A stretch of 64,000 nt of DNA, taken from the NCBI GenBank assembly GCA_905178155.1, contig CAJINV010000003.1, forward strand, positions 8,476,799-8,540,798, written 5' to 3'. This DNA comes from Amoebophrya sp. A120 (taxonomy: Eukaryota > Protista > Dinoflagellata). The first letter of the stretch is position 1; the number at the start of each line of letters is the position of its first letter. A model generated the notes under the pieces. The model saw only the letters and a list, made by a program, of their open reading frames with translations, made no database searches and was not told the DNA's origin. This document shows positions 2,906-23,400 of this stretch, one piece after another. The position numbers and the translations under genes were made by a program.

Positions 2906-3033
2906 GCACATTCATCAACAGAGCAACCTACACAGAAAACCTGCTTGTTGATTGCGATGGGCGAATAATATCATTCGCCCATCGCAATCAACAAGCAGGC
3001 TTTCTGTGTAGGTTGCTCTGTTGATGAATGTGC
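2906..3033. repeat. Near-perfect 128-bp hairpin at the broken 3' end of the retrotransposon pol
   Basis: 2906-2966 is the reverse complement of 2973-3033 with one mismatch; the loop is 6 nt (AATATC). Confidence 0.95.
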
Positions 3034-6000
3034 AATAGTCCTGGATGTTTTCCGGCGAAATTTTGTCACTCTGCTGGAACACCCACTTGACTATTACCGA
3101 CCGCGGCCTGTATAGCTCGCCAGACAAAGCAACTATCGGCTTGCTCACGTCCTCGTGGTCGCAGTTGGGGATGTACAGGTGCAGGACTTCCGCGGTTCTT
3201 GCATCGCGGGTTTCGACGAACTGCAGCTTCTCCCACAACTCCGGCGAAAATTTCTTCTTCCACGTCAGCGTTGCGAACAAATCCACAAACGCTGTCTGCA
3301 CCACGAGGCCGTCGTCGCGCAGCGCTAGCTCCGTGCGCTCTGCGCTGACGTAGTCCGCGATTGTTCCGATTTTGATCTTCGGCAATTTTCCTTTTAACCG
3401 TCTTTCTGCTGGTATTTTGAACGGAGTGTTGAAGATGCCGGCAGAAGAGGAAGCACGCGCTAGGTTGTATTTCGCGATGTCCATCCTGCGCTGGATTACC
3501 GCCAAAGAATCCTGGACCGTGTGCCGAAACTTTTTCGCGCCGAGCATGTTCAGCGGGGCAGTTTGTTCTTCCCCTGTACGTTGCTCTGGTTTTTCTTTTT
3601 CCGCGATCGAGTAGTCGTCTCGGTCGATCAGCAGTACTGGGTACCCTTTGATCGTCTTCGCCTTGCCTACGAACTCCTCTTCCGTCGGAGCTGGTTTTTC
3701 GCGCAATACAAATTCGTCATCTGCGGACCCGGAGGTGTCGTCGATGTACACTCCGGCGTTTGGTTTGCCCATCGCATTTTTCTGCACGGCGAAAGCAGTG
3801 GTCGAGCGACTGTTGTAGAAGGCGGGATTTTGTTTCGGCCCGAGCGTGCCAGTCAGGTCCCGTAGAAGCGGTTCTTCTTCTAGTCCTGTCTGGTGCGCGC
3901 ACAGCCTTGACGTCTGCTCTGACGGGACCATCCCGCGAAAGCCGAAGTAGTGGTCTTTTTCGATCTGGAAGCGGCCGACGGGGCGGTCGTAAGAACGTGG
4001 CTCTGTTGCCCAGGCGATTGTTGTCGTCACGTCATTGTGCGGCACGTAGTCGCCTGCTACACGCTGTTCTTCCTCGGACCCTTTTGGAACTAAAAAATCG
4101 GATATCACTCCTATCGGTTCTCCGATTAATTCGACCGTTTTCCAGGAGTACGCCTCTTGGGCTCCAGATCGCAAACTCATGCGGACGTGGTGGGCCATGC
4201 AGAGCTTGTTGTACTGCCCGTGGTTGATCGGTCGTCCGACAAAACCACCCGGACAGCCGGGGATCAGCCACCATCGGGACTCGCGCCCTTCTATCACCGG
4301 GCTGGGACGGCCCGGGACGTGGTACGCAACTGCACGGCGCTCCGCCGACGCTATCAACCTTGCTTTGGTTTCTTCGTCGACCTCGTCGGAAATTTGAGAT
4401 TCATAATTTTCGACTACAAACTGCGCGAGCTGCTCGTCGGAGACCGGGTCACGCGCCATGGCTTCTAATTTATCGATTTTTGCCCTTAGCTTTTCGATCG
4501 ACTCTTCGGATTTGCGGTCTCTAGAGAGACACTTTTTCTCGTGCTTGGAGATGCAAATCGCTTGCTTGTAGCCTGCTTCTAACTGATCGCTGGCGTCCTG
4601 CATCTCTTTCATCATTTCCGATTCAATCGCATGCAGGAGCTGATCCGTATCCGTTTTTTCGTCTCCGGCTTCAAACACAGGCGGACCGTAGCACATACTG
4701 ATCGTGTACTCGCCTGGGCGAAACGCGGCTTCTTGAAACTCGTGCGACATGTTGTACAAATTCACCTGCACGGGCCGAAGCTGATCTTTGTGTTGCGGAA
4801 GACGCTGGTGCTCCGTCACCAGAGTGAAGGTCATTCCGCGCTGGATCAGTAGCTTCGTCGGGGCTATCACTATGTAGTTCAAGCCGAGCCGGTATTTCGC
4901 TGGAGTATCAATCTGCGCCGTTGCTGATTGTCCCGGCGGAATAAGCCCGTCGCAGTGCTCGGAAATCGGCTTCGTCACTACTGATTGCACCGAAGTCGCT
5001 TTTTTCACAAAACCCGGCAACGAAGCAGGGGCTGGTGTTAACTTTTTGCAGATACCGTTCGTGATGTGCTCGAGCGTCGCTCTGTCGGCCATCTCCGGCG
5101 CTACTTGCCCGCTCTCGCCGAGGTAAAGCTGCTCTTTGATGAGGTTCAGCCGCTGCGCCGTCTGCACACACGTCGTCCATTCGCTGGCGCGCGGCTCCGT
5201 CGCGACGATCCACATTGTTTCTGCAATATGCCATTTCTGCTTATCATCCTTGTCGACGAAATGCAAGTTCACCATCGCAGTGTGATCAAAAGCAAGTCCT
5301 GTCGACTGCTCCAGAAACTGGCGCGCACGCAGGTCGCACGGCTCCGAGATCATGAAATCATACTGCGCTTTTTCATTTTCCGACATCACCTTTGAAGTAT
5401 TCGGATCTAGGATATCCCCCATGGTGTTGCCGCTGTCGATCTCGATCCACACCCAGACTCCCGTGCTCCGTCCTATCTCGGCGCGGATGTAGAGCCCCTG
5501 TGGTCTTTCTTCTTTCTGCAGCCTGGCGACTTTGAATTTCTTTATTCCTTTGACTGCTACAAGTTTCGACGTAAATGTTTTTCCATCGCTTGTTTGCAGC
5601 TGGTCTCCTGGCGCGAACAAAACCGCTGTTCCGGGGTCTAGATCCGGCGGGAGGGAAGTCTGCGCGTCGTGCTGCATACTTTCGCAAGCCGTTATCTCCA
5701 TTTGCGATGCAGCTACAGCAACTGCTGGAGACGAGCCCGCTGATTGGGACTCTGTCAGAATCGGCGGCGCGCTGGTAGCATCTGGCTCATCCTCCACCGC
5801 GGCCTGTTCATCGCTGGTTTTCACTGACTTGAAAATCTGCGCCGCGGTATCGGAACCCTGGTGCACTTCCTCGTCCGCAGCGCCGTCGTCTTCGCCGTCT
5901 GACTCATCTTCTGACGCTGTTACCTGCTGCAATAGCTGCTTTTGCTCCTGCAGCGCGCGGAATTTTGCTACTTCGAAGCTAGGAATTTCGTGGTCATGCC

Positions 6001-8407
6001 CGATTTCTTGTCCTCGGAAGTCGAGCACTTTTGTCGATGCTGACCCGTAGGACGTGAGACCGGTGTATTTTTCGTAAAACAGCTTCGCCTGCTCGTCCGG
6101 TTGCTGCAGCGCCGGCGGTGGGCGAAGTCGGTTGACCTTGGCTCCGTTTAACCATTTTCCTCCGGACGCGTCGTACACGGCGAGCGACTTTTTCTTACTT
6201 TCGTCTCTCGCGCGCATCTGGTCCGCTGTCAACGTTCCCTCCTGCGGGGTCGCGACCTTGGCGGCGGGTGCCGCGGCTTTCGCCTTGGCTTCTTGGCCAT
6301 TTTCTGCCCTTGGCCACGGCGAGTTGTAGTCGCGCTGCTTCCCTCCGCCTTTTCCTTTCGTTCCCGACGCGTTGGTCTTGTTCTTACCTTTGCCTTTGTC
6401 GTCTTTCCAGCCATACTGGTGCTTGAGCATGCACTTCGCGGTCAGCTGCTTCTCGTCGCGCTTGAAGCCTTCGTCTTTTGCAAGGTCGTTCGGGCAGCCG
6501 AAGTCCTCATTGTTCTTCCCTGTCACCGGGTGACGCCCTTTGCACCGCTGGCATTTCACCGCGGGCGCGCGCAGGAAGAGCTGGCCGTATGTTGATTTCA
6601 TTTTATTGAGCCCGTCCTTGTGGTGCCTGAAGATATGCGTGTCGGGCGTGTCTACAGCTTCACAAAGGACATCCTCGTCCTCGCCGTTGCCGCTTCCCTG
6701 CGGTTTCGTACCGGACATGAGGACTTCGCTCAGCGCTTGTTTGGAGGCTTTGACGCCCGGCATCTGCAGCAGCGTGTTTACCATCTCGCTTCTCATCGTG
6801 GTCACCTGCTGTTGCGTGCCGCTGGAGACAACATCACTCACGATCGACTTCATCGACTTCGCCGACTTTTTCGGGCCGGTTTCTGTACTTCCGTATCCAG
6901 AACCGTCCCCGCCGGCTGTAGTTGCTTTTGCTTTCGGAGTAGTCGTAGCTTTAGCTGTTGTTTGCTTCTCCGCTGCATATTTTTCGGCACGCATCGCTTG
7001 CGTCTGCTCATCTTGCGCTCGAAACTTGATCGCATCGCAGAACTGCGCGAGAGTGCGGTCGCCTTCTTGCACCGCTGCCGCACGCGACGTGCTGTAAAAT
7101 TCTTGCACATAAGGACGCGGAAGTTGTTTTTCAAAAGCTGTAACGCATTGAGAAATAATCGCGTCCTCGTTTTGCTTCGTGTTTTTGTCGATCGGTTTCA
7201 GGCCTTTTTTCATCTCCCGCATGATCTTGCACGACTGCAAATTCTGCAAAATATCTGTTGTGAACTGGATAACTGCAGGCGGGTTGGAAGACGCGAGCTT
7301 GGTCTGCAGCAGCGTTTCCTCCGCGATTTCCACCGACGATAGCGTGTCGCCCTTGAGGTTGAAAGCGTCCGCCACCATCAAGCGGAAAGCTTTGATCACT
7401 TCTTCGTAGTCGTATTCTAGTTTTCCCGGCACCACTAGCTTCTGGACGTCGTCCGGGTACTCGCGGTCTGCTGGGAGGATGTTGCTTTCACTATAGTATT
7501 GGAATTTCGATTGCAGTAGCGACATAGAATTCTTGACCTGTTCGAACATCTGCTTGGAGGTATTCGCCAGCGATTTCATGTTGCTGCGTCCTAGCGTCGT
7601 ATAAATCTTCTTGAAATTGCGGTTGGGCAAGTGGATCGCCTCGTCAAGCCTCGCCAAATCCTGCTGCGCTGCCCGACGCGGATCCGGATCGTGCACCGAG
7701 GCGCACATCGCAATGTCCTCCAGTTTCTCCTTATCGTCATTCCCGCGGTCGCTGCTAGAAGAGCGCTTTTTCTCCTCCGCTTTTACTGCTGCTGGCTCGA
7801 TCAGCGCTTGCACACGCAGAGAGCCTGCATAAATGACGAGTTTTTTTATTGTTGCTGCTTGAAGCCCGCACCAGCGTGCGGCTTCTCGCTTTACTCTCCG
7901 ATACCAGCGGGCGGTCTGCTCCGGGTCGAGTACTTCCTCCTCCGGAACCGGCATTACAAATTCGACGAAGATCTGCCTATTTCCCGTTTCCGCGTTCTCC
8001 GCGGTGTAGAGGGCGTCGATTTTCGGTGCGTAGCCGCAGACCTGCTCTTGCGATTCGAGGATATTCCGCAGTGCCGGTGCGAGGCCCGGAGCAACCGTGT
8101 TGAACTCTTTTTGTACTAGCTTTTTCGTTGTCTCCGAACCTTCGAGAGCGTTCGACGCAATATTGTGATGCAGAACAGTATCAAAACGTTCCTCGATGTC
8201 GTCGATAGAGTTCGCTTTCGCTGTTTGTTGCTGGATCGGTGGATAAGAGATTTGCGAAGCAGCCGTAGATCCGCGTTCCGAAGGCAGCGGCGACATCCCG
8301 GGCAGCGCTCTGGTCCTACTGTTCGGGATGCTGTGCAGCTCCTGCTGACCGAAGTTGACTTTTTTCGGCGGCGGCTTTCTACCATCACCACTTTCGCTTT
8401 CCAGCAA
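2915..8407 (-). CDS. Gag-Pol polyprotein: atypical Zn knuckle, retropepsin, dUTPase-like linker, reverse transcriptase; C-terminus truncated
   Basis: CQRCKGRH-x11-C (~6490-6553); IEIDSGN protease motif (DSG 5429-5437); IPPGQSA...VQVNLYN...FRPGE dUTPase-like segment (~4690-4960); RT motifs RVAGDYVPHN, EKDHYFGF, LGPKQNPAFY and YIDD (3737-3748). First ATG is at 8296; the last ~20 codons come from the hairpin. Confidence 0.85.
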   Translation of the reverse strand: MLESESGDGRKPPPKKVNFGQQELHSIPNSRTRALPGMSPLPSERGSTAASQISYPPIQQQTAKANSIDDIEERFDTVLHHNIASNALEGSETTKKLVQKEFNTVAPGLAPALRNILESQEQVCGYAPKIDALYTAENAETGNRQIFVEFVMPVPEEEVLDPEQTARWYRRVKREAARWCGLQAATIKKLVIYAGSLRVQALIEPAAVKAEEKKRSSSSDRGNDDKEKLEDIAMCASVHDPDPRRAAQQDLARLDEAIHLPNRNFKKIYTTLGRSNMKSLANTSKQMFEQVKNSMSLLQSKFQYYSESNILPADREYPDDVQKLVVPGKLEYDYEEVIKAFRLMVADAFNLKGDTLSSVEIAEETLLQTKLASSNPPAVIQFTTDILQNLQSCKIMREMKKGLKPIDKNTKQNEDAIISQCVTAFEKQLPRPYVQEFYSTSRAAAVQEGDRTLAQFCDAIKFRAQDEQTQAMRAEKYAAEKQTTAKATTTPKAKATTAGGDGSGYGSTETGPKKSAKSMKSIVSDVVSSGTQQQVTTMRSEMVNTLLQMPGVKASKQALSEVLMSGTKPQGSGNGEDEDVLCEAVDTPDTHIFRHHKDGLNKMKSTYGQLFLRAPAVKCQRCKGRHPVTGKNNEDFGCPNDLAKDEGFKRDEKQLTAKCMLKHQYGWKDDKGKGKNKTNASGTKGKGGGKQRDYNSPWPRAENGQEAKAKAAAPAAKVATPQEGTLTADQMRARDESKKKSLAVYDASGGKWLNGAKVNRLRPPPALQQPDEQAKLFYEKYTGLTSYGSASTKVLDFRGQEIGHDHEIPSFEVAKFRALQEQKQLLQQVTASEDESDGEDDGAADEEVHQGSDTAAQIFKSVKTSDEQAAVEDEPDATSAPPILTESQSAGSSPAVAVAASQMEITACESMQHDAQTSLPPDLDPGTAVLFAPGDQLQTSDGKTFTSKLVAVKGIKKFKVARLQKEERPQGLYIRAEIGRSTGVWVWIEIDSGNTMGDILDPNTSKVMSENEKAQYDFMISEPCDLRARQFLEQSTGLAFDHTAMVNLHFVDKDDKQKWHIAETMWIVATEPRASEWTTCVQTAQRLNLIKEQLYLGESGQVAPEMADRATLEHITNGICKKLTPAPASLPGFVKKATSVQSVVTKPISEHCDGLIPPGQSATAQIDTPAKYRLGLNYIVIAPTKLLIQRGMTFTLVTEHQRLPQHKDQLRPVQVNLYNMSHEFQEAAFRPGEYTISMCYGPPVFEAGDEKTDTDQLLHAIESEMMKEMQDASDQLEAGYKQAICISKHEKKCLSRDRKSEESIEKLRAKIDKLEAMARDPVSDEQLAQFVVENYESQISDEVDEETKARLIASAERRAVAYHVPGRPSPVIEGRESRWWLIPGCPGGFVGRPINHGQYNKLCMAHHVRMSLRSGAQEAYSWKTVELIGEPIGVISDFLVPKGSEEEQRVAGDYVPHNDVTTTIAWATEPRSYDRPVGRFQIEKDHYFGFRGMVPSEQTSRLCAHQTGLEEEPLLRDLTGTLGPKQNPAFYNSRSTTAFAVQKNAMGKPNAGVYIDDTSGSADDEFVLREKPAPTEEEFVGKAKTIKGYPVLLIDRDDYSIAEKEKPEQRTGEEQTAPLNMLGAKKFRHTVQDSLAVIQRRMDIAKYNLARASSSAGIFNTPFKIPAERRLKGKLPKIKIGTIADYVSAERTELALRDDGLVVQTAFVDLFATLTWKKKFSPELWEKLQFVETRDARTAEVLHLYIPNCDHEDVSKPIVALSGELYRPRSVIVKWVFQQSDKISPENIQDYCTFINRATYTESLLVDCDGRMILFAHRNQQAGFLCRLLC

Positions 8408-8419
8408 GAAGCCGCTCTA
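8371..8419 (-). promoter_or_regulatory. Candidate stop-codon readthrough signal (UAG + 3' stem-loop)
   Basis: On the minus strand GCGGCTT (8415-8409) starts 1 nt after the TAG and pairs with AAGCCGC (8377-8371); the stem can be extended with G:U pairs. Confidence 0.5.
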
Positions 8420-9895
8420 GTCGCTTGCTGTCCAGCGCGGCTGCGCCGCTTTCTCCTGCGGCGGAAGGAAGACTGACTGTTCCATCACTTCACTGCTCCG
8501 CGGAGACAGGTCAAAATACTCGGTATGATTATTTTGCGGTGGTTTTGATATTTGCGCGAGCTCCGTGATTTTTGTATTGGTTTCCTCGCTGCACGCAGAA
8601 GCAAAGTTGTCCAGTCGAGTGCGCATCGTGTCGATAATTTCGTATTTCTTCTCGTCGAGCGCTGACTCGTACCATTCGTACACTTCGTCGAATTTCTGCT
8701 CCTGCTCTTCTTTGTGCTGCTCGAAGTCGCGACGTAGCTCGTCAACGTCATTCACTGTGTCGGTCAGTTTCGCGTTCACCTGCTGTAAACTGTTTGTCGT
8801 TCCAACACACAAAGCTTGCGTCGCTGTGTGCGCATCCGACACGAAGGTGATTTTTTCGCGTAGTTGCGCGTCGCTGCGCGCTACTAGCTCGCGCGTCGTC
8901 GCATTTTCTGCTGAATTCACCTCCTTGTGCTCCAGCAGCTTTGCGTCGATCGCTGTCTGCAACTCGTTGCTGCGCTTCTCGGACAAAGAACGCATTTCCA
9001 CACTATCCGCCGACGTCGCTTCTTTGTGCTCTGACAGCTGCTTCGTCATTTTATTTTCGAATTCTTCTTGCTGCGACAGGTGGGATTGCTGCTTCGTTTT
9101 CAGCTCCTCCACTTCGGAGCGGATAAGCGCGGTGTCCTCGAGCTGCTTTTTCACAGCTTCCAGCTTCGCTTCGAACTCTTTGTGGCGGTCGGCATCTTTC
9201 ACGTCGGCCACTGCGGTTTGCAACTCGGCAAATTGCGACTGCAGAGTGTCGAGGTAGTTGTGAAGCTCTTCGTCGGTGTTCTGCAGCTCGTTTCCGATCT
9301 GCTTTTTCGCGGTATCCACCAGCAAGTCGATTTTCTTGTTCAAGTCCATCGTCTCTTGTTGCGCCTTGTTCTCATGCGCGCGGAACCGCTCGTCTGCCTC
9401 CTGCAGCTTCTTGCTCAGCGAGTCGCTGCCGATTTGCATTCTCTGTTCTAGCGCATTCGAATCGTCGTTGAATTTGCTGAACAGTGACTGTTTTAATTCG
9501 TGTAGCTCCGCCGATTGCGTCTGGATTTTATCCGCTAACATTTGGACCTCCAGATTGCACTTATTCACAACGGACAGTGCTCTCCTCTGGTCCGGCGACA
9601 AGGAAACTCCGCGGATGTTTCGCCTTCCTACGACGCCGCTCGCATACCGCGTTGTGTTGCTGCGACCCAGCATGCGGCTGGCGCTGGATGCTTCCATCGC
9701 TGCGGCAGTTCTCGTAGCTGTTACTCGTTGTCCTTCGGCATTCTCTACTGTTACCGAGTCGGTCCTGACGAAGGAATTTGCGCGCTCTGACGGAGTTGCA
9801 AATAGTTCCTCTGTATGCGTGGTAGTCGGATTTCCTCCCATCGATACGTCCGAGATGGAGGAAAAATCTCGCATTTCGTTGTCGTCGTCCGCCAT
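8417..9895 (-). CDS. Retroelement coiled-coil protein (492 aa from ATG 9895), in frame with gag-pol across a single UAG
   Basis: Long heptad-like E/K/Q/L-rich ORF. TAG at 8419-8417 is followed by AGC GGC TTC TTG in the same frame as the 1830-aa ORF. Confidence 0.8.
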   Translation of the reverse strand: MADDDNEMRDFSSISDVSMGGNPTTTHTEELFATPSERANSFVRTDSVTVENAEGQRVTATRTAAAMEASSASRMLGRSNTTRYASGVVGRRNIRGVSLSPDQRRALSVVNKCNLEVQMLADKIQTQSAELHELKQSLFSKFNDDSNALEQRMQIGSDSLSKKLQEADERFRAHENKAQQETMDLNKKIDLLVDTAKKQIGNELQNTDEELHNYLDTLQSQFAELQTAVADVKDADRHKEFEAKLEAVKKQLEDTALIRSEVEELKTKQQSHLSQQEEFENKMTKQLSEHKEATSADSVEMRSLSEKRSNELQTAIDAKLLEHKEVNSAENATTRELVARSDAQLREKITFVSDAHTATQALCVGTTNSLQQVNAKLTDTVNDVDELRRDFEQHKEEQEQKFDEVYEWYESALDEKKYEIIDTMRTRLDNFASACSEETNTKITELAQISKPPQNNHTEYFDLSPRSSEVMEQSVFLPPQEKAAQPRWTASD

Positions 9896-9899
9896 CTTT

Positions 9900-10718
9900 T
9901 CAGTCGCTGACCAGCGTGGCGTCGAAGAAGCGCGGAAGCGTCGGAAGCCTTGGCTGTCTTTGTTTTCTCTTATTTCTTCTTCGCCGGGGCGTAGCCGGTT
10001 CTGCTTCTGGCTGATCCGGTTCTCCCTGTAGCAATGCGTCTTCGAGATGTTTTGCAAATCGACGTTGCAAGAACAAAAAATGGTGGTTGTATTGCTCCGC
10101 GATTTCTACTTCTCGATAGAGGCGTCTAATAATTTGTTTAGCATGCGCGATTTTGGTTTGCTCTGTTGAAAATCCAAACCAAATTTGCGGCTTCGTGCGC
10201 CGGCGCAGCAATCGGATGTAGACCGGTTCCCGTGCGAAGAGGATGATCGGCCACAAATGCCACCCGCACTTGAGATGCTGCCAGCCCGCAGTCCGTCTGT
10301 TGACTTTGACCTGGTAGTGCGGGTGGGGAATCGTTTCCCGCTGCGCCGTAACGTCGATGCTCTGGTACCTGATTCCTGTTACTCTTAGTACTGTTGATGC
10401 CGAATTCCAGTTCGGGCCGATGTAGTACCTGGCTACACGCTCGAACGCGAAGAAGAGGTCGTCTGTGCTCCAGTATTCGTTCGATTTCTCCTTCGGCGCG
10501 TAGACTGTGCAGATAAAATCTTCCAGTTCTACTTCCGGCGTATCCCAAGGCAGCCGTGCTAAATTTTCCACCGAGTTCGTGAACGGCTCGAAAAACCCTT
10601 CGTTGATTCCGGCTCGTGCTGCCCGGTCGGTCCAGCTGTATTCTGCTTGCAATCGTCTAGATCTCCTCATCCATATTTCGTATAGTTGCTGTCCGGGACG
10701 GCCCGTGAAAGAGAGCAA
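9900..10718 (-). CDS. Accessory ORF B of retroelement, unknown function
   Basis: 272-codon intronless R/W/Y-rich ORF; its TGA lies 4 nt before the ATG of the coiled-coil ORF. An in-frame ATG at 10799 is separated from it by one TAA. Confidence 0.6.
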   Translation of the reverse strand: MLSFTGRPGQQLYEIWMRRSRRLQAEYSWTDRAARAGINEGFFEPFTNSVENLARLPWDTPEVELEDFICTVYAPKEKSNEYWSTDDLFFAFERVARYYIGPNWNSASTVLRVTGIRYQSIDVTAQRETIPHPHYQVKVNRRTAGWQHLKCGWHLWPIILFAREPVYIRLLRRRTKPQIWFGFSTEQTKIAHAKQIIRRLYREVEIAEQYNHHFLFLQRRFAKHLEDALLQGEPDQPEAEPATPRRRRNKRKQRQPRLPTLPRFFDATLVSD

Positions 10719-10799
10719 ACGAAATAACGATAAGAATTGTAATTAATGCGAGGGGGTGTGCAAGCAAAAGGAGTGTAGTTGTTTTTGCGCGATGGACAT

Positions 10800-11615
10800 C
10801 TAGTAGTTGTCACCGGCCCACCGCAATAGCAATTTTTCCTGTACTCGGGAATAAGCAGGCAGTTGTTGCTCGATTATGTTTCTTGCAGCGTAAAGAAGAT
10901 GGTCTTCCTGTTCCAGGAGCAATTGCAGGATGTGCAGCTCGTGGCTTGAAGTCAGATATTTTGCCGCGAGCGCACGCGCAGCGGACAAAAATAGCCACCT
11001 TTTATATTCGGACTCGAGAGTTGTTCTCCGGCAGCGGGAGCGGTCGGTGCGACGGTACACAGTGACCGGCGGCCCGAAGGATACTGGGTTTCCTGGTTCC
11101 TGGAGCTTCCGCGCCTTGTTGCTGAGAATTTTCCACCTGCTGGACGGGTGTTGTTCGTTCGCCGTGTCCAAGGAATATTTTCCCACCAAATATCCGCCAG
11201 GCCGAACCGGCTCGCAAAAATTGGGATATCTGCGGTTCGCCGTCCTGCTTTTGCGTTCTTCGTACAGTTCCGTGGAGATGTACTCTTGCAGGACCCGTAG
11301 CTGGTGGGTTAGCAAGTACAGCTGCCACACTGTGTGGTCTAATTCCTTTTCGGTTGTGAACCGATAGCGGCCCCGGCGGTTCTCCTCTAGCACCTGCTCA
11401 TACAAGTTCTGGCGCCGCCACAAATAATAATTGCGGAATAGCTGGACCTGCTGATATCGTTGGTGTACGTTTGAGCGCTTGCGCTCTAGTTTTGGACTAA
11501 ACCAACGCGCCCGACCCTTAAAATGTATCTGGTCGTCAGCGTATATTGACTCGTTGAATTCTGGAGCGAAATAAATCACCTCATCGAATCCATTGGTGAT
11601 GTTGTCGCGCCACAT
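10800..11615 (-). CDS. Accessory ORF A of retroelement, unknown function
   Basis: 271-aa ATG-initiated intronless R/Y-rich ORF between the PBS and gag, with TAGATG stop-start junctions at both ends. Confidence 0.65.
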   Translation of the reverse strand: MWRDNITNGFDEVIYFAPEFNESIYADDQIHFKGRARWFSPKLERKRSNVHQRYQQVQLFRNYYLWRRQNLYEQVLEENRRGRYRFTTEKELDHTVWQLYLLTHQLRVLQEYISTELYEERKSRTANRRYPNFCEPVRPGGYLVGKYSLDTANEQHPSSRWKILSNKARKLQEPGNPVSFGPPVTVYRRTDRSRCRRTTLESEYKRWLFLSAARALAAKYLTSSHELHILQLLLEQEDHLLYAARNIIEQQLPAYSRVQEKLLLRWAGDNY

Positions 11616-11907
11616 CTACCATTACGAACCAACGGTCAGTGCTCCCGCAGCTTTCGCTAGCCGCTCGCACCAATCTCGCGTGTGGTAGAGGTTGCGAAGG
11701 AGCTTAGTTGCACGGTCCAAGCGACGCGAAAATTTTGTTTCCTTGTTGAGCCGGCGTTTTTGGTTGTTTTTTTTTAGTTGTTTTTAGTTGTGAAATCCCC
11801 TGGCTTCATAGCAGTTCCTCCCGGGTGGTGGTGGGGACGTGGAGGACGCCGTTTTTTTCGTATTTAGTTGTCTAGTTGTTCTTCGTCGTTGCCATCGAAG
11901 ATGTTGG

Positions 11908-11926
11908 TTCCCGGCTTGATTCACCA
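11908..11926 (-). promoter_or_regulatory. Primer-binding site (tRNA identity not assigned)
   Basis: TGGTGAATCAAGCCGGGAA lies 1 nt after the LTR-terminal CA; its complement reads TTCCCGGCTTGATTCACCA, like a tRNA 3' end. Confidence 0.7.
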
Positions 11927-11927
11927 A

Positions 11928-12354
11928 TGTAGGACTACGGCCAACTGCACACTGACTGATGTCAGGAGAGTTGTGCGATCACCACAAGAGAGAAGGAACG
12001 GGTTAAAACTATCTTGAGCGAGAAACTTGGAACAAGCTACGAGAGCGAGGGATCTCAAATCACATCTGCTTCACGACGTAAATGCGTGAGCAGGGAGCAC
12101 GCTGCTCGAGTGTTCGTCTTTCTCTTTACTTCCTTGTTTCTTCCTATGTTCAAGGTTGAAATCGTGACTCGTTCAAGTTCAACAACGCGGTTGCACGCAC
12201 GCAACGGATCTCGGTTCACAAACAACTCTTTCTCGTTCGTCGTTCTTTTCTCATCTTCGTTGTTCGTACTCGCGGAACTCTTTGCGTTGTCAACTGTGAC
12301 TAGAGCTAAGGTGGCGAACACAGTTACACTCGATGGATTCATTCTCTTCATACA
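11928..12354 (-). repeat. Putative 5' LTR (427 bp)
   Basis: Minus strand runs TGTATGAAG...GTCCTACA with imperfect terminal IRs, abuts the PBS, and composition shifts beyond 12354. No second copy is in the window, so the outer boundary is inferred. Confidence 0.6.
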
Positions 12355-12458
12355 TTGGAATATGGATATTCGAGTCGATATCTATATCCATCTTCGATAA
12401 GGAGTCATGATTTTAATTGAGAATCGTCGACTCATCTTGATCGATTCTCGATTCATCG

Positions 12459-13826
12459 AGATCCATCTTATTCATCGAGATCCATCTTCCATTCATCACG
12501 CAATTTGTCCCTTCCGCTGTTGCTGCCCTCTCGTCAACCGCACAGGTATCGCTTTTTCGGCCCGGCATCCCGGATCGACCAACCACAAGTGCAGTGCGAC
12601 ACAATGCCCACCACGACATCAAGGATTGCGACAAGACCACAAACATCCTACTCTCACCGGCTGCACGCTTCGGCGGGGCAAAACGGTGGACACCTAGGCG
12701 AGGCACGGGAGGGGGCGCCCCAGGGCGGGGGTCCCCCAAACAGGTATAGTTCTACTCTATTTCCCTGTGGCGCTGCATGGCATGGAATGCAAAAATACAA
12801 CGCTGGTCCCGGTGTTCTTCCTCCCCTCAATTCCCAGGTCAACCGGCACTACACGGCCAACGGATGGACCGGGCGGCCAGGGGACGACCGGGGCGGCGGC
12901 TGGCGATGCCACGACGACTTCTACGCGCGGGACATTGATGCCGATCGCCACTTGCCGGAGATACGGAATAACCGACTGCACGCGACAGCGGGGCAAAACG
13001 GTCTACACCTAAGCGACCAAGGGGCGGGGGCTCCCGGGTGCGGGGGCTCCCAGAACAGGTATAATTCAACTTCGCATGGCTGTGGTCCTTTTTGGAATGT
13101 CGAGGTCCACCACTCTCATGCTGGCGCGTTTGCTTCCCTCCCCTACAACACCCAGGTCCACTACCACCATGCGGGGCGATCCAATCCCGGGCGGTGGAAC
13201 ACGACCGCGCAACCGGCAACGTGGTGGTGACCGAGCGGAAAGATTGGAATACGACTTGCAAAGTCTGCTGATCGACGATCCGAGATGAAAAGAGAAACAG
13301 ATGATCTAAAAGCTAGCACGCTGCTGGCTCCAGCTGCGTCCAAAAAAAAAAGAAACAACTTGAAATTTCGACTTTCGTATGAATCCAATTGATATCTTGA
13401 AGAACAGGTTTATTTTTGGGATGATCAAACTTCAAGACTTATCCTGCTGACATAGGAGCTACCATTTTGGTGGCCCCAGCTGAGTTTATTCAGAAAAAAG
13501 TAATCTTGAAATCTAGATTTACTTTTGCCAAAAACAAAGAACTACGATCGACGGATCTATTTTTTTTACTAAAATGCTGTTGTTGGATTTGAATTTAGAC
13601 GACTTGTTGACCACGAACAGATAAATCGTCTTGTTATTATTTCTCATGAATAGATGTTTATTTAAGTTTTTCAGTTTGAGTTGGTTCTGACATGGAGGAT
13701 CACTACTGCGACAAAAATGGGATTGCAACGGAACTTTTAGGGCCTTGAACATTTGACGCCATGCCCTGGCATGGAAAGAAAGAAAGAAAGAAAGAAAGAT
13801 CCATCTTATTCATCGAGATCCATCTT
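12459..13826. repeat. Pair of identical 30-bp direct repeats flanking the plus-strand gene
   Basis: AGATCCATCTTATTCATCGAGATCCATCTT at 12459-12488 and 13797-13826; the second copy is preceded by a (GAAA)n tract. Confidence 0.9.
12604..13230 (+). CDS. Hypothetical 208-aa G/H/N-rich protein with a twofold internal repeat
   Basis: ATG at 12604. RLHASAGQNGGHLGE...NRYSST and RLHATAGQNGLHLSD...NRYNST are ~315 nt apart with synonymous differences. GC-rich island in AT-rich flanks. Confidence 0.7.
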   Translation: MPTTTSRIATRPQTSYSHRLHASAGQNGGHLGEAREGAPQGGGPPNRYSSTLFPCGAAWHGMQKYNAGPGVLPPLNSQVNRHYTANGWTGRPGDDRGGGWRCHDDFYARDIDADRHLPEIRNNRLHATAGQNGLHLSDQGAGAPGCGGSQNRYNSTSHGCGPFWNVEVHHSHAGAFASLPYNTQVHYHHAGRSNPGRWNTTAQPATWW

Positions 13827-14012
13827 TTCTCATATGAAAATATAATTCTCTGTCTCTTGAGTCCTCTTTTTCTTATCTTCCTATTCTTCCATCTCTACAA
13901 TTTTGAGAATCAAACCAAATCGAATTTTATCTTCAGAAGATCTATTTAATCATCAGATGAAGAAATTCTCGTATGATGGATTTCGGTGCTTTGTGTGCAA
14001 TGATTTCCTAAA

Positions 14013-14059
14013 CACTAACACATTCACACGGAATAAGCACTAACACATTCACACGGAAG
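14013..14059. repeat. Short tandem duplication
   Basis: CACTAACACATTCACACGGAA twice, 25-bp period. Confidence 0.85.
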
Positions 14060-16090
14060 CTATGAGAGTCCCCAGAAGAAGAAATTGATATTCTAGAAAT
14101 TCAAATAGATTATGAAAAATAAATTTTGAATTGTGAGAATCTCGAAGGAGATTGATATAGGATAAAAAAAAACCGAAATTGAAAAAAATTCAGATTGATA
14201 TTACGAAATTCAAAAAGTTCAGAGATCTAGAAAACACAATGATAATATCGAAGATTTTCAAAAAACAACAACAAATATCATTCTCTAAACAAATAGACAC
14301 AAACATAAAAAAATTCCGAGATATTGTTATAGACACATAATCGAAACTGAGATTGAGATAGATGAATCATCACATGAGATGAGACAGATGGTTATGGGCA
14401 TTGCAAATGCCTCATTACTCCGAGATAGATGAATGAAAAATATTTCGCAAAATGAAAATATTTATATTTTTGAAGAAAATAAGAAAAAGAATGAGAGATG
14501 ATATCAAGATCATATGAGAAAAAAAAAATCATTCATGAAAAGAAATTTGAATTTCCAATGAATTTCTTACATATGGGATTCATTCATCATCGTCATCATC
14601 TAGCGCATTCATCATCATTGGAAAATATTCATGATAATCTGAAATCATTCTCAGAAAACGGAAAATATTTCAAGACTAAGATTCGACGCAAGTATGTGGC
14701 CTAGTGCTATTTCTGTCCACCATGTGGTTGTGATGGGGAGATCTCCTCGGATGTTGATGCCCATTGTCGGATTGATGGCCATCGGCATTCTTGACCCCGT
14801 GCTATAGAAGGGTGGAAAGAATCTTCAACCTCAATATGCGATGCGCTATGAATATGGGCATTTTTGTGTATGTATATTTTGACGATGATGCAACTCGGTT
14901 CCACTTTTGTCGCGGTTTCATTTTGTTTTTTTGGATATCGATATTTTTCATGCCATGTCCTCCATGTGTCTGTCCTGTCTGTTCGGGTCTTGACGTTTTG
15001 GTTTTCTTCTCTGTCGAAATTATACACGTCGCAACCGAAGACGACGAAATCGAAAGGCTTGCCCCCATACAGGTGCGGACCGCGGCCCTGCATTGATTTC
15101 GATTTGGGCTCGGAGCCAAACTCTTAAGTCCATTAATATTAAATGCGTTATTGGGCTCACGCTCACCAGAACCAGTGCATGACTTTCCAGCGTCAGAAAG
15201 ACAACATGGACATTTTGCGGCTGCTGAATAGCTGTGCTAGTCGTCTAGTACGAGAATGAGTTGCTGCATGCACAGTTATGGTGTACTAAACATAGAGTTC
15301 ATGATAGAATCTTTACAAATTGCATAAAAATGTGGAAACTAAAACTATGCGAAGGTGATCAAATATGTCCTGCATTTTGTACGTATTTCGATAGATACTG
15401 CTGTCTTTTCTAAAAAGCAGACCGTAATAAATGGCTAAAGACAAAGAATACAGAGGTAGATGGCTTTACCCTGGCGGCACGTTCGAATCACAAATTTGCG
15501 TGTTGAAAACGAAAAGTAAATGTAAGTCTAAGTTGCTGTTCATGCGGTTATTTTTCAGTTTCAGGCTCTTTGATCTTGATACTAGCAAACTCTCCGATGT
15601 TTTTCGAAACAACAGGATCATCAATCGTTCGTGTTGGTGTTGCAATCAAATAAATAATTGTAATATTCTCATTGCCGACTGCATCTTTCTGAGTTACTTT
15701 CTCGGTCGTTGTGGGCCGAAGTAAAACAGGAACAACGCCAGCAGGCAGGAAAACCAATTCTATTCAGCGCTAGCGCTACGATAGCTCCAAGAGGGTTTGG
15801 CCGATTTATTATTCCCCGCTCAGACGTGACCACCCCAGCACCAGCTGCGAAAAAGTTGATCAGGGCGCGCAACTGTAGTAGTAATGCAAAACGCGCATTA
15901 GAAGTCATGACATGATGCGAGCGACAGCGTGTCCGCGGCTCGGTATATTAAGTTGGTTAACTTTTGGTGTTCAACGCGTTCAGCGTGACAGATGTCTGGA
16001 CACCTGAGGTAAAAAAAAACCTGTCGTGCAGCAAATGCCTGTACCGGAGAAGATACTTTGTTGCAATTTCAATTTGGATTCAGAGGTTCG

Positions 16091-19000
16091 TCACAACTGA
16101 GCGAGGCATATCATGGCTGCGGATGTAGTCTTCCTGTGCTCAGCCGCGGTGACGGCAGCAGATTTTCGCGTTGCGCGAGAGGATTTCGTGGCCTCGCGTC
16201 GTTTTTCTCTTTCGCGCGCGAGCAGCTCTTCCGCAAACCGCAGGGTCTTGCCGAAGCGGTCGGGTGGGGTCAGTTTTGCGAGTGCCCGGCGGCACATCCT
16301 TTCGTCCCGCTCCTGTTCCCGTTCTACTTGCGTGACTAGGTGATCCACCAGATGGAGATCGATCAGTCCCTCGTCGTACTCCCCCCCGTCGACCCGAAAC
16401 TGAAACTTGCGCAGCCACCAGCAGAACTCCATGGTCTGCCGAAAGCTCCACGCGGCCACCGGCATCGCCCCACTTCTATTGCTAGCGTGACTACTAGTAA
16501 AACTTAAACTCGTAGTTCCTGCCGTAGTAGTACTGCTGTTCATCTTCTTGTTCCTTACCGTTGCCGAGCAACTGGTGCTAAAGCCGCCGCGCGGCTCGTT
16601 TGACACGACCTCCAGCTTCTCCAGCGCGCGGTGAAAGCTTTCGGCAGGTAGAAATCCGTGGGCGGCATTCTCCTCTCGGGTGAAGGCTTTACAGAGTCTC
16701 AGCACGCTGATTTTGCGGAGCCGGGTCATGTACAGCAGGCGCGTCAGCAAGCTGCGATACGGCTCGCAGACGATGCTGCCTTCATCCCTGTACTCGACGA
16801 CAATGTCGTCCTTGGTCCGGTGCTTCTGCGTCTTTGCTGGGACGACACTGGACGACAGGGAAGAACTGGGCGCTTGTTTCCCTTGCGAGGTGGACCCGTC
16901 CTCGACCTCGTTCAACAACACCCCCGCTGCTGTGTCGGCATCGTGCCACGGCCGCTTCAGGGCGGTTGGGAGCGGGAGGTAGTTCTTGTAGTCAGTCGAT
17001 GTTGCTTGTTTGATGTTGCCTTTGTTGTAGCTGCTGCTCATCCCAACAATAGTAGAGCCTGGATAATTGTTGTTTTCCTCCCGCTCGAAGGAATCTGATG
17101 GAAAAACGACGTCGACGAGCGCACTGTCGTAAGAACTCGACCATGTTGTCGGTGCTGGTGCTCCACCTGCGCCACCCCCACTAGTGGAAGAACTAGAACA
17201 GGCACCTCCGCTTGATGTTGTCGCCGCCTCCGCCTCGTCGACGCGGTAGTACAGTTTCTTTCGCACACAGTCGTCGTCTGGAGAGCTGTAGTGCAGATCT
17301 TGCGCCATCTGCGAGAGGGCAACGACTTCCACCTGGTCGCGGAAGGACCGCACCGGTGCTGCCCCATTGGGAATCTGGGTGTAGTAGCGCAGGGCCTTGC
17401 TGTTCCCCCACTGTTGCCCTGCCCACTGCCGTCGGCTCTCCAGGGTTTCGTCAACCGCGAGACAATCGAGGCATTCGGCCGGGCTGTCAAATGCAAATGT
17501 GTCTGGGTCTGGAACGATGCAAGTTTTGCCACGCAGGTTTTCCATGACCCATGAGGTCTGGAATGCGGGACCTCGCATGACAGAAGATTCTCTGAGGTCT
17601 CTAACTCTATCATGCCTACAACTCTGCATGAGAAACTTCCTCTCAACTCGGTGGAAAGTGGACAGCTTTTGGCACTTATGCAACACAGTCACAGATTTCT
17701 GTATGATTCAGATGTAGCATGACAAATCGCAAATGCAATCGTCCAGACCCAAACATATTTATTTGCATTCGATACGTGCGCCGGCGTCGCAATTCTTGCG
17801 TGCGCGTCCACGGAATCCGGTGGTCGTCGGTCTGCAGTTCTTCCAGAGCTACTCCCGCACAATTGCGGTATTCGGCCGAATATGCATCAAAAATAGTTAT
17901 CATGGATCTTGGTCGGGCAGAGCCAAAGGCAAAAGCGCTGCAGACGTCACGTCTGCTGCTGGTTGGGATAATTGCGGTCCATGTCTAGTTTTGATGAAGC
18001 TGGGGGATGGACTTGCCGAGTCTGTCAAGTAGAGCGGCCAGCGAAAGAACCTATACCCAGCTGCGTTTATACTCATTTATATTGTTTTTGCTGAGACAGA
18101 GACTGACATCGGATTGAAGTTGTCCAATGGATGCAGGATAGTTATTACAAGCTTCGGGTCTTGCTGGGACCGACCTCCTTCTTCATCTCGCGGAACCGCA
18201 TGCACGGAAGAGAGACCTTCGCATGCATCTCAGACTCCGAGCTAGCGCTCGTGGGTTACCTACATGATGTGCGCGCCAACCCTCTGCACTGTTCCAGGTC
18301 TAGATGTTGTGTTTTCAGTTGATACCCAAGTGGAGGGGTTCTGGAGAAGCAGCTGGCTTCGCGCGGCGACCGGCATTAGAGATGAACACTGGGCCTTTCC
18401 CTTTGCCAAAAAGATGGGATCTTGCCGATTCCACGAAGAATGCGACATACCTGGGGGGGCGTTATGGTTTTGGTCACAAATAACTTGCATATCGAGAAAA
18501 AAACTCCGAGGACCTCCTGAACCTGATCTTCGTAGTAGTTGCGTAAAGATTCATGCAGCGTTCATGAATGTTGACAGAGATCAGATAGGGCCTGATGCAT
18601 ACTTAGATGAAGAGCCCCTCAGGAGAAGTTTTGTGAAAACAAGCAGGACCCGTGCAGTGTCCAGAATAGTTTGCGGTGCCGTTCTCTTTGCACTTGTGCA
18701 GGATTTGCAGCTCTTTCTTGAGTGTGTTACGTGTTAGTTTGAACTTCTTTAGGAAAAGGAAATACACTAAAAGGGCGATAGAAGAATAAAGAAAAAGCGG
18801 CAGTTTGTTGAATTTCTAGTTCTAGGTAGTATCTTTATCTTGGCTGTGTAGCTGTACCTGGTAGGGGCGCAGTGGTGTACAGTCGGCGGCGATTTCCGTG
18901 TAAATTCGGTCTGTCGATGTCCCGTCCGCGGCCTTTCTTGATCAAGTGCGTGTACAGACTTCGCGGTTGCGCAGATATCGCTCCGTAATCGTACTGTGCC

Positions 19001-20463: not shown

Positions 20464-23400
20464 TTAGCGACTTTTTCTTGGAGCAGTACGCTTGAGTTTT
20501 TGGAAAGTGTAACTCGAATCTATTCTCCGTCTCGCAGTTCTCGCAGGGTTTTGCTTCTCATGCTTCTCCTTGTCGAAAGCCGTGCAATCGAGCCACTTCC
20601 TCAATACGTCGGTGCACTGAGATATGGAAGCGTCAGGGTTGAAATCGTCAAAGTTGAAATAATTTGTAACGCATAAAAAAATAATGTATGACCCGAGGCA
20701 CGTGTGTTCCAGAGCAGGCAAGTGAGACCGATTGCAAACCTGTTTGGGGTTAGAGCTCGAGCTGCTAAAGTAAAAGTAGCATGAGAAAATCAGTCTTCTT
20801 TGCCTAAGCAGCATGGCAAGCTGGATTTAAGGACCACCAAAGTTTGTCATGCACCGCTTAGAAATTAGGCTTAAAACTGGCATCCATTTTATGCATGACA
20901 AATCATTTCAACTTTGTCGATTTCAAACCTGACGCTTCCATATAAGATGGTGCTCGTTAACATCCACGAGAAGGACTGCTGGCCGCGGATGCTACCGCGG
21001 TACTGCAGGTAGACTTTCCGCGCGTGCGCGACGGCTGCTGGGGTAGTTGCGCTGCAACGCCGGGCGCCCCTCTTCAAAAAGCGGGGCTGCACAAGGCAAT
21101 TCAGAACGCGGAGCACAAGTCGTGGATCCGCACGATGGCGATGGGGAATTTCAGTCCACAATTGGGCAAGGAGCGCGACTTGCAAGTCTTCGCAAACGGC
21201 TGCGATTGAGAGGTCCTCCATTCCAGAAGTACTCGCCGTTTCACCAATGTGCGCGGAAGCGCTGCATTCGCCTTCCCCTTTCCTTCTGCGTGTAGCACTT
21301 TCTTGCGACGTGTTCAATGGGAATGGGGTAGAGGCAAAAGCATCGGAAAGCGTGTCCTCACAGGAGACTCCGACAGTGCACCACCCCGGGCTCGACAGCG
21401 ACAAGAGTCTTGGCTTCCTTGCGGTGTTTCCTTGCACAAATGGAACAGAGGAGCATACGCTTTCCGATGGCGCGGATGCTGTGCGACGCCGCTTTGCGAT
21501 TCTTAAGTGTGATTGTTGTTGTCCACCCGAAACTTCTGCCACGTTCTTGCACCTGAGAAGTCCCAACAAATCAGGGTGGACGGCTAGTCTTGTTTCGTCG
21601 ATGCAATCACTACGACTTCTTGTCATACCGGTAGTAGAAGTAGTTCCCCCACCAGCCTGTACAAGAGTTTCTGCTGTAGTAGAAGTCGAAGATGATGACG
21701 ATGAGCCTTCTGTTTCTACTGAAGGTGTTGAGTGGGGGCGGTGAACCGCACCTCCAACTACAGCTTCTTTCCCTTTGGGTTCGGTTACGTGCTGCGATGG
21801 TGCAGCAATATCTGGATCTGCAGGTTTGATTGGCTTGTTCCTTTGACTTCGAAGTAGACGCACCGGTGCGGCGATTGCAGCGACGAGGTGGATAAAGTAT
21901 TCCACGTCGAAGAATTGGAGCGCAGCTTGTCTGGCGTTACGACGTCTTGTAATCTACCGAATGCAAATATGTCTGGGTCTGGAACATTATGGCAAGATTT
22001 GCCGTGCGTGTATGGCATGATACATATGGTACCAGAAGCAGGCCCTGGCAGTTCGCCCTCCAGGTGGCATGACTTTCAGCTCTGCACTGCATGGCCACGA
22101 AGGGCTCCTCACCTGTAACGACTTGTTTATGCAAAAATGACGTTTATATAGTCTAAATTTCATTTTGTCATGCCTGCGGAAACGCAACACGAAGCCGCGC
22201 AAAATCAATTTTAACAAAACAAACCTGTGACCACGCTTGGGCTTGGCTGCGCATTTCAGCTGGCATCACAACTTTCTAATAGACCACGACATATTCGCAG
22301 AATGCATATCAATATCATCCGTTGCTGGTCGTGGACACTGGGCGGGGCCATCTCTCGGTCGCGTCCCCAGCTTGTGCGGCCCTCGTCATTCTCATTTGGG
22401 CGTGCGATAAGTTCGCTTTTAGGTCGTGGCTCTTCCGCCGGTTCTTCGGCCGCTGCAACTTGGTGGTCGTGCCCTTCGTCCTCGTCTTCAGGCGGAATCA
22501 CGACCCGAGCCCGAAGCAAGTCTTGGTATCCCGCGACGTAGGCCAGAAAGGGTTGGCCCGCTATTCTCAGTGCTGTAAGCAAGCAGGTACTGGCCTGGAC
22601 CGAGAAGGCCCCGGGAATGCAGTAGAGCATTCGGAAGTGAAAGCGCAGCGCATCAGCGGGCTGAAATCGACAGGCGCGGAGAATCCCCGCGAGAGTAATT
22701 GCGGACGGGTGCTTCACAAACGCAAACATGGCCAGGGGCGAGGGCAGGTGGCACCTCTGCAGAGCATGATCAGAGGTGTTCGGAGTCAGACCAACTATTG
22801 TTCCTGAAAGCGTGCCTTTATTGTGCCCGGGAGTCGAGAGCAGTTGTGCTCCAACTTCGCTGCTACACAAACGTACCTCCGACATATGATCTGCCAGAGG
22901 TGCATGTAGTGTATTTCCATCACAAACGCCATGTTGATCGACCTTCTGCTCGGTGAAGAAGTCCGCACTTATCTGCCCTGCCGGGGTGCTTGCCAACGGG
23001 CGACAGCACGCCAATAAAGTGTTCCACGTCGTATCATCTGGACTGAGATGAGATCCTGTGCAAAACAAGTATCGGACTTCTCTTGCAAAATAGAAGCAAA
23101 CAACTCAAACAAAATTTCATTCTCAGGACGGCGAGAGGAGCATTTTCCTCTGAAGAAGTAGTCACGATTTTTACTCATTATATCAGTCGCGCGGAGGTGC
23201 TGCTTCGCAGTGTCCTTCACGTCACACTTTTTTCTTTGTACATGTGCGATACTTGTGGAATATTTGCAATGCATAGGCGAAGCCCATCAATACCTGGACG
23301 TGCGCCGCCAGCTAGAAGGTCGGCGTACAACTGTTCCGCGGCGTCGTGCTTATCCGTAATTTGTGTGTGCGGGGCCTTCTTTATAGCCGCTAGTGCGATA

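Follow-up and report, generated by a model that had tools for sequence, protein, structure and literature searches.

A truncated, very divergent gypsy-like element of Amoebophrya sp. A120 with two AUG-depleted open reading frames ahead of gag-pol

The window analyzed here, a 64,000-nucleotide (nt) stretch of the Amoebophrya sp. A120 genome (contig CAJINV010000003.1, positions 8,476,799 to 8,540,798), carries on its minus strand a very divergent retroelement, probably of the Ty3/Gypsy type. Read in its own direction, the element begins with a motif resembling a primer-binding site (PBS), which is followed by a leader, an open reading frame (ORF) that we call ORF A, a T-rich spacer, ORF B, a coiled-coil-like ORF, an in-frame UAG and a gag–protease–reverse transcriptase (RT) frame (Table 1). 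Our reading, to which we assign a probability of roughly 55%, is that the locus is a single 3'-truncated copy in which two extra coding ORFs lie between the PBS and gag-pol and are likely read from the RNA that also serves gag-pol, through leaky scanning together with reinitiation after short upstream ORFs (uORFs). An initial annotation, made from the letters of the sequence, had described a divergent element of gypsy-like kind, polycistronic and virus-like in layout, in which additional sense ORFs precede gag, and this general picture holds.

Table 1. Positions of the features of the element and of related segments in its relatives (aa, amino acids; LTR, long terminal repeat)
Feature	Position	Strand	Remarks
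LTR-like repeat	11928..13751	-	CA end at 11928, adjoins PBS-like motif; TGT at 13751 a candidate start; 5' boundary about 13710-13760
PBS-like TGG motif	11909..11926	-	one base past CA at 11928
13-codon uORF	11581..11622	-	purine at -3, G at +4; overlaps ORF A start
ORF A	10800..11615	-	271 aa; ATG 11615, TAG 10802-10800
18-codon ORF	10743..10799	-	opened by the ATG of the TAG-ATG junction; closed by TAA 10745-10743
T-rich tract, A-B spacer	10700..10760	-	likely non-coding; AG after tract a possible splice acceptor
5-codon uORF	10657..10674	-	strong context; overlaps ORF B start
ORF B	9900..10670	-	256 aa counted from its first ATG, 280 between stops; TGA 9902-9900
Coiled-coil-like ORF	8417..9895	-	492 aa, E/K/Q/L-rich; strong start 4 nt past ORF B stop
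In-frame TAG inside gag	8417..8419	-	nonsense lesion or readthrough site
Remaining Gag-Pol	2970..8416	-	capsid-like region, CCHC-like knuckle at 6553, protease DSG motif at 5437, RT
RT catalytic aspartates	3955, 3742, 3739	-	within Gag-Pol frame
Fold-back	2906..3033	.	64 nt, 62/64 paired, centre 2969/2970; ends pol
AP2-like segments	P0001 2838; P0010 about 2370-2430; P0011 555-630; L001 about 11700-11830		after RNase H

ORF A and ORF B, which share one frame with the 18-codon ORF between them, look coding on the composition of their sequences. When the region was simulated 2,000 times with a third-order Markov model, two frames of at least 256 codons appeared in 26 runs. Triplet periodicity is evident in ORF A (p = 1.8e-6) and in ORF B counted from its ATG (p = 0.009); the leader ahead of ORF A, 310 nt with three short uORFs, gives p = 0.86. 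Third codon positions in both ORFs are low in T, as they are in gag-pol, and a model of synonymous codon use in gag-pol picks the ORF frame as the best of six for A and for B alike. The frame of ORF B is open from 10742, and its first ATG lies 130 nt past the ORF A stop. Within the spacer between the two ORFs, T makes up 23 of 46 nt, a count that compares with a maximum of 16 for any 46-nt window of A, B or gag-pol.

Both predicted proteins are basic (net charge +12 in each case) and lack an internal methionine; that of ORF A is rich in Arg, Trp and Tyr, and that of ORF B is rich in Arg and Trp and has a basic tail. We would take them for soluble proteins, perhaps nucleic-acid-binding accessory factors, although the latter is a best guess held with low confidence. 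No homologue or family of either was found in Pfam, PHROG, PDB or protein-database searches. Structure prediction, which the initial annotation had suggested as a check, gave single-sequence folds that are unusable (mean predicted local distance difference test scores of 37.6 and 38.7 for A and B), and Foldseek with these folds returned no match at E<=0.001; the ESM Atlas gave no usable match. The viral_contigs collection held no locus for RT, A or B, its one counted "relative" likely being a chance 8-mer, and an exact-sequence look-up placed 0 of 9 window proteins in the protein collection. Several identities were tried and rejected. Neither ORF encodes a membrane protein by its highest 19-residue hydropathy (0.7-0.8), and the two are not demonstrably paralogues by local score, which does not exceed that of shuffles (P 0.12-0.48 across 4 matrices). 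Two small AP2 profiles built from relatives matched neither, and a by-eye resemblance to HUH endonucleases, tyrosine recombinases or a displaced integrase found no Pfam, PHROG, PDB or integrase match.

A clear signal in the upstream region is the scarcity of AUG. Between the start of A and the start of gag (11612-9896, 1,717 nt) there are 7 AUGs against 19.3 +/- 3.4 expected, and 0 of 1,000 dinucleotide shuffles reached so low a number. Across A-B, AUG is the most under-represented of the 64 triplets (ratio 0.36), beyond TGA and TAA. The depletion is confined to A-B: the ratio is neutral in the coiled-coil ORF (0.99) and in pol (1.04), and internal methionine codons number 0 of 525 in A and B together versus 51 of 2,306 in gag-pol. 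With 20 AUGs in its 1,473 nt, the coiled-coil ORF returns to normal density right from its start, and because it does so this start is plausibly the last one meant to be reached by scanning. Each of the nine other AUGs that precede gag starts an ORF of just 2-18 codons, a pattern with a region-stratified P of 0.008 (controls: 0.15 in the coiled-coil ORF, 0.77 in pol), and within ORF B out-of-frame AUGs are also depleted (P 0.01).

In other eukaryotes, start codons are classed as strong or weak by the nucleotides at -3 and +4. By this rule, which may not be that of the host, the start of A is weak, that of B is weak and that of gag is strong, and strong-context uORFs begin 7 nt before the start of A and 4 nt before the start of B, overlapping each. 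In the mechanism that we favor, scanning ribosomes would meet the weak starts of A and B first, and at each of them the overlapping short uORF would carry many ribosomes beyond the weak start. Ribosomes that bypass both would reach the strong Gag start and initiate there. A minority of ribosomes would thus supply A and B in small amounts, and Gag-Pol would be made in bulk; reinitiation after B might add to Gag synthesis but would not be required. A, B and Gag-Pol are, on this sequence evidence, likely to be read from one RNA by leaky scanning helped by short uORFs. There are precedents for the separate parts of such a scheme (statements from the papers cited here and below rest on the accessible portions of their text). 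ORFs I and II of rice tungro bacilliform virus (RTBV) and badnaviruses are cleared of AUGs and tolerate short uORFs (PMC5902531). [quoted passage not shown]

The number of extra ORFs depends on how the coiled-coil ORF is assigned. Residues 85-370 of P0001, a relative found through its RT, have the same position and the same E/K/Q/L-rich composition, and on these two grounds the coiled-coil ORF likely encodes the first portion of Gag-Pol. Pairwise similarity between the two is not significant (E 0.77), and a weak apolipoprotein-type match was obtained for the ORF (E 0.003). Because the coiled-coil ORF occupies the place of the Gag-Pol N terminus of relatives, we count two extra ORFs where the initial annotation had counted three. 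The UAG that was said to lead into gag-pol does lie in frame, and an open frame of 1,833 codons follows it, but it is not the gag/pol boundary, as the capsid-like region, zinc knuckle and protease are all downstream. A conserved GS motif lies 198 residues past TAG 8419; ahead of this motif run 545 uninterrupted residues in P0001, 725 in P0010 and several hundred in L001, the three relatives with a visible N terminus, and 0 of the 3 has a stop at the equivalent place. Since all three continue without a stop there, the UAG probably falls inside gag. The GS-hydrophobic motif itself, at 7825 (pol residue 198), forms part of a short beta/alpha segment common to the gag of the window element, P0001, P0010 and L001, and strikes us as reminiscent of SEA-type self-cleavage motifs.

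We lean, by a little over even odds, toward a UAG that is a lesion of a dead copy, as would suit a truncated lone copy whose capsid would otherwise be made by readthrough alone. A programmed readthrough site is a tentative alternative, to which we give appreciable but lesser credence. It would be consistent with the linker-like position of the UAG, with the lack of a frameshift anywhere, with six letters shared with the end of ORF B and with a possible downstream stem-loop, whose folding energy of -17.3 kcal/mol is, however, not significant against shuffles (z -1.2). An in-frame UAG with a potential RNA structure behind it recalls readthrough in the gammaretrovirus murine leukemia virus (MuLV), but in MuLV the UAG divides gag from pol (PMC4178896), whereas here it comes before the capsid-like region. 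Stop-codon reassignment in the host was considered and rejected, given just 1 TAG in ~2,300 gag-pol codons and the long host frames free of TAA and TAG.

The pol frame itself is remote from described families. Searched against Pfam and PDB, pol gave no match, and its RT had no Pfam match even at E 10. With the RT region as query, a full HMMER search returned 11 proteins at E<=0.001, among them P0011, a protein of Amoebophrya sp. A25; an RT search among longer proteins was empty. P0001 (3,006 aa, 38% over the RT region) is collinear with pol residues 114-651, 955-1246 and 1284-1815, and in P0010 (3,147 aa, 25%), whose best solved match is Ty3 Gag-Pol, RT is followed by RNase H and then by integrase. 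The RT aspartates D116, D187 and D188 are the same in every one of the 6 rows aligned. Against solved structures, a profile of the RT alignment ranks 8R0S first (E 6e-12), ahead of Ty3 (4e-6) and human immunodeficiency virus (3e-5); we take 8R0S to be a cauliflower mosaic virus entry. A seven-row RT tree separates the window element, P0001, P0002 and P0003 from P0005, P0010 and L001 with support of 100/100; it holds relatives only, with no reference RTs, and excludes P0004, P0006-9, P0011 and P0012, which are without the RT core. By sequence, then, the element is kin to a protein of Amoebophrya A25 and to gypsy-ordered polyproteins.

The order gag, protease, RT is present in the window, and the full order through RNase H and integrase is present in P0010 only. 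Pfam detects one RNase H each in P0010 and L001, and no integrase was matched in P0001, P0011 or L001. P0001 and P0011, the two nearest relatives with a visible C terminus and both of the window element's subclade, end 169 and 233 residues past an AP2-like motif without an integrase match, whereas P0010 runs on into integrase; in the former an integrase could sit in a following ORF unseen in protein records. Each of the four relatives that extend this far has, past RNase H, the AP2-like segment followed by a Cys/His cluster, and in P0011 the segment gives a weak Pfam AP2 match (E 0.005). L001 also bears, at 13565-17722 on the minus strand, a 1,386-codon frame with no Pfam match, in which primase/helicase-like and transposase-like stretches can be made out by eye.

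At its 5' end the element has the PBS that was initially proposed, in the form of a TGG motif (11926-11909) one base past the CA. The first 8 letters after the CA are identical in L001 (position 4303). The motif presumably differs from the Met-tRNA site; no tRNA genes were found within the window, and the primer tRNA was not matched. At the other end, pol is to all appearances truncated by the fold-back. The open frame past TAG 8419 has its last 18 codons inside the fold-back, leaving 1,815, and pol thus ends 8.96 kb from the PBS and ahead of RNase H, ~140 residues short of the position of the first RNase H aspartate of P0001. RNase H and integrase, which had been expected after ~9.4 kb, are both missing from the window. 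No second LTR was found in the window, and this copy lacks the element's 3' end.

Sequencing reads agree with a lone internal region. In read run X1, which may come from the very source of the window, 3001-11965 forms one contig with no variant letter at a depth of 43.2 (flank 45.2), and no other copy of the internal region at >=80% was present among the matches listed. Depth is 93-313 in bins 11856-14075, the LTR-like region, where a second copy differs at 4/207 and 2/508 letters; this excess fits an LTR with a partner elsewhere. Parts of A, B and pol are matched by short contigs of X3 and X4, which belong to another study; one contig crosses the junction at the ORF A stop and differs at 1 of 227 letters. 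That these contigs derive from RNA is a guess. One raw RNA run gave 2 partial reads over 13 kb and carries no weight for or against expression. The LTR-like region also contains a 207-codon antisense ORF (12607-13227, plus strand) with two repeats spaced by 315 nt, of which X1 holds several divergent copies and for which Pfam has no match. An identical 30-nt direct repeat (12459-12488 and 13797-13826) brackets most of the region.

Several observations weigh against translation of two coding ORFs by scanning. The codon fit of A and B (0.02-0.04 bits) lies under that of all 8 held-out gag-pol blocks (0.04-0.12), and no second copy or homologue of either was found. L001, the only relative available as DNA, has a 950-nt AT-rich leader without a match to A or B and without overall AUG depletion (7 vs 7.9 expected), although its last 543 nt contain 0 AUGs against 4.3 expected, and its value as a counter-example is weakened by its decay and its place in the sister subclade. 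Out-of-frame depletion is not significant in ORF A (P 0.13), the rule for strong and weak contexts is one drawn from other eukaryotes, and the figure for the overlap of uORFs with the two starts (about 0.001) is post hoc. Further, ribosomes would have to scan ~2 kb past nine other AUGs, more than the 900 nt reported for RTBV. Finally, the T-rich tract with an AG ahead of ORF B and the AGs directly before the ATGs at 11615, 10799 and 9895 (15 of 106 ATGs in the element have such an AG) also fit splicing.

Splicing is indeed the main rival: B and Gag-Pol could come from spliced or spliced-leader trans-spliced RNAs with AG acceptors just ahead of their starts. Amoebophrya trans-splices at least 18-38% of its transcripts (PMC7789003), and Ogre elements have an intron between their ORFs (PMC6317226). 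Were this the route, however, the need to clear AUGs across 1.7 kb would vanish, and the gag ATG has neither a pyrimidine tract nor a spacer before it; no joint inside 3001-11965 appeared among the rows listed, RNA coverage being nearly nil there. We regard splicing as unlikely. We judge a shade less probable the arrangement proposed in the initial annotation, in which three accessory ORFs are chained by termination-reinitiation and UAG readthrough follows; TAA 10745, which that annotation did not list, would then be a lesion of this copy. The stop-start junctions on which it was built are all present as letters, but they differ in what they join. At 11618-11613 the TAG ends no ATG-started ORF, as its frame is already shut by TAA 11624 two codons earlier; at 10802-10797 the ATG (10799) is in the frame of ORF B, as claimed, but TAA 10745-10743 shuts it after 18 codons; and TGA-AAAG-ATG at 9902-9893, a tight junction leading into the coiled-coil ORF, is the only true stop-start junction between long ORFs, so that the geometry of a chain exists from B to gag only. 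An ATG right after the ORF A stop is improbable where in-frame ATGs are missing, the 43 spacer codons score best in the frame of ORF B (0.08 vs -0.08 and -0.07), ~2,850 codons run without a frameshift, ORF B and the coiled-coil ORF have the six letters before their stops in common, and a stem-loop is possible 4 nt past the UAG, all of which would suit the chain. Set against these are the spacer's T content, which is above that of any coding window, the lack of a UGGGA motif in the 100 nt upstream of each of the four stops, the stem-loop score within shuffles, the three relatives with no stop at the place of the UAG, and an AUG clearing that stops exactly at the coiled-coil start, which marks this as the main start.

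Two further possibilities concern the nature of A and B. They could be a captured host or foreign fragment, perhaps one broken 571-codon gene, present in this copy only and without a role in the element. The frame shared by A, the 18-codon ORF and B, the single copy and the absence of an A/B match in L001 would be in keeping with this, and captures are known in one or a few copies of elements (PMC7264820). But a passive fragment does not lead one to expect a specific loss of AUG together with the pattern of start contexts, the codon preferences resemble those of gag-pol, the spacer between A and B looks non-coding, and no host or database homologue was found; on balance we find capture improbable, to about the same degree as the chain. 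Alternatively, the element could belong to an integrase-less, pararetrovirus-like branch in which A and B serve particle or spread functions. P0001 and P0011 end without an integrase match, the RT profile ranks 8R0S above Ty3 entries, and the layout is that of badnavirus ORFs I-II-III. Yet P0010, in the sister subclade, has an integrase after the same domains, an integrase could occupy a following ORF hidden from protein records, and a CA-ending LTR-like repeat adjoins the PBS; moreover, a profile ranking is not a phylogeny, and the 3' end of this copy is missing. This last possibility seems very unlikely. A gypsy-type element whose two upstream ORFs are reached by leaky scanning and short-uORF reinitiation is the reading that we carry into the comparison with known systems.

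With Ty3/Gypsy elements (Metaviridae) the locus shares a PBS after a CA-ending repeat and the order gag, protease, RT, to which relatives add RNase H and, in P0010, integrase. Unlike them it has an RT beyond the reach of Pfam, two sense ORFs ahead of gag, and long inserts past the RT core (in P0001, 548 residues to RNase H vs 154-215 in the sister subclade), and its relatives have the AP2-like segment after RNase H. Ogre/Tat elements similarly combine a gypsy core with fast-evolving extra ORFs of obscure function (one or two in PMC6431247; 5' and 3' extra ORFs in PMC6317226), but they are a plant lineage defined by an additional RNase H of archaeal type and by a polyprotein that an intron splits, whereas here protease and RT share one frame; the accessible text on Ogre/Tat does not mention AUG clearing for the extra ORFs. 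One survey (PMC6317226) counted 3,372 plant gypsy elements with extra ORFs and left out ORFs that in other copies are fused to the polyprotein. The closest layout is that of Badnavirus and Tungrovirus (Caulimoviridae), in which two AUG-poor, weak-start ORFs precede the polyprotein and short uORFs are tolerated (PMC5902531). That the same AUG-cleared layout occurs here suggests that the two work alike and is not proof of membership: the present element is an integrated, LTR-like element of a protist, A and B are similar to no database protein, and no Pfam match to a movement protein was obtained in the window ORFs or the 11 relatives, though divergence could hide one. The broader proposal that a branch in marine parasitic alveolates independently reached the badnavirus design, with leaky scanning through two AUG-cleared ORFs to a giant Gag-Pol, an AP2-like DNA-binding domain past RNase H and no polyprotein integrase, and is the protist counterpart to plant pararetroviruses, we consider doubtful, with only a slim chance of being right.

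Amoebophrya genomes are reported to carry LTR elements, with no detail in the accessible text (PMC7789003; PMC12130899). The text supplement of PMC7789003 makes no mention of gypsy or LTR, and the accessible part of PMC2774666 has nothing on the Amoebophrya lineage. The literature covered, a scope outside which most subscription papers fall, contained no AUG-cleared upstream ORFs in an LTR element and no account of this Amoebophrya lineage. What the locus adds, in the form of one truncated copy, is a divergent element of the gypsy type in which two orphan ORFs stand upstream of gag and bear a clear signal of AUG clearing, and its value is limited by that single copy and by the orphan state of the ORFs. 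Gypsy elements often carry extra ORFs, mostly without an explanation for them; in this case a measurable signature in the RNA points to the way in which such ORFs would be translated, and signatures of its kind are described for plant pararetroviruses. If our reading is true, there would be a polycistronic RNA in a group reported to be without polycistronic mRNAs (PMC7789003), and the element would lend itself to reporter tests of scanning and reinitiation in relatives of dinoflagellates. Should integrase really be missing, the resemblance to pararetroviruses would go further, a case to which we give little probability.

Other repeats and genes surround the element. Past the fold-back, 1200-2887 is a different multi-copy repeat with no Rfam family, of which 2668-2887 has a depth of 254 in X4; over the whole window Rfam gave 24 matches, all below the gathering score and mostly hairpins. 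Positions 1-400 hold a nest of direct and inverted repeats with an 80-90-nt unit, and two inverted repeats, at 20622-20943 and 36240-36363 with arms of 57 nt and 56 nt, resemble MITEs (miniature transposable elements with inverted repeats) or introners. Seven copies of a ~30-nt motif lie on one strand between 29087 and 38146, about 0.9-2.2 kb apart; they are probably exon ends that recur within a host gene on the minus strand, and several are followed by related intron-like sequence. At 48833-49972, also on the minus strand, a host gene encodes a fragment of a Citrate/SLC13-type transporter (Pfam CitMHS, E 1e-20).

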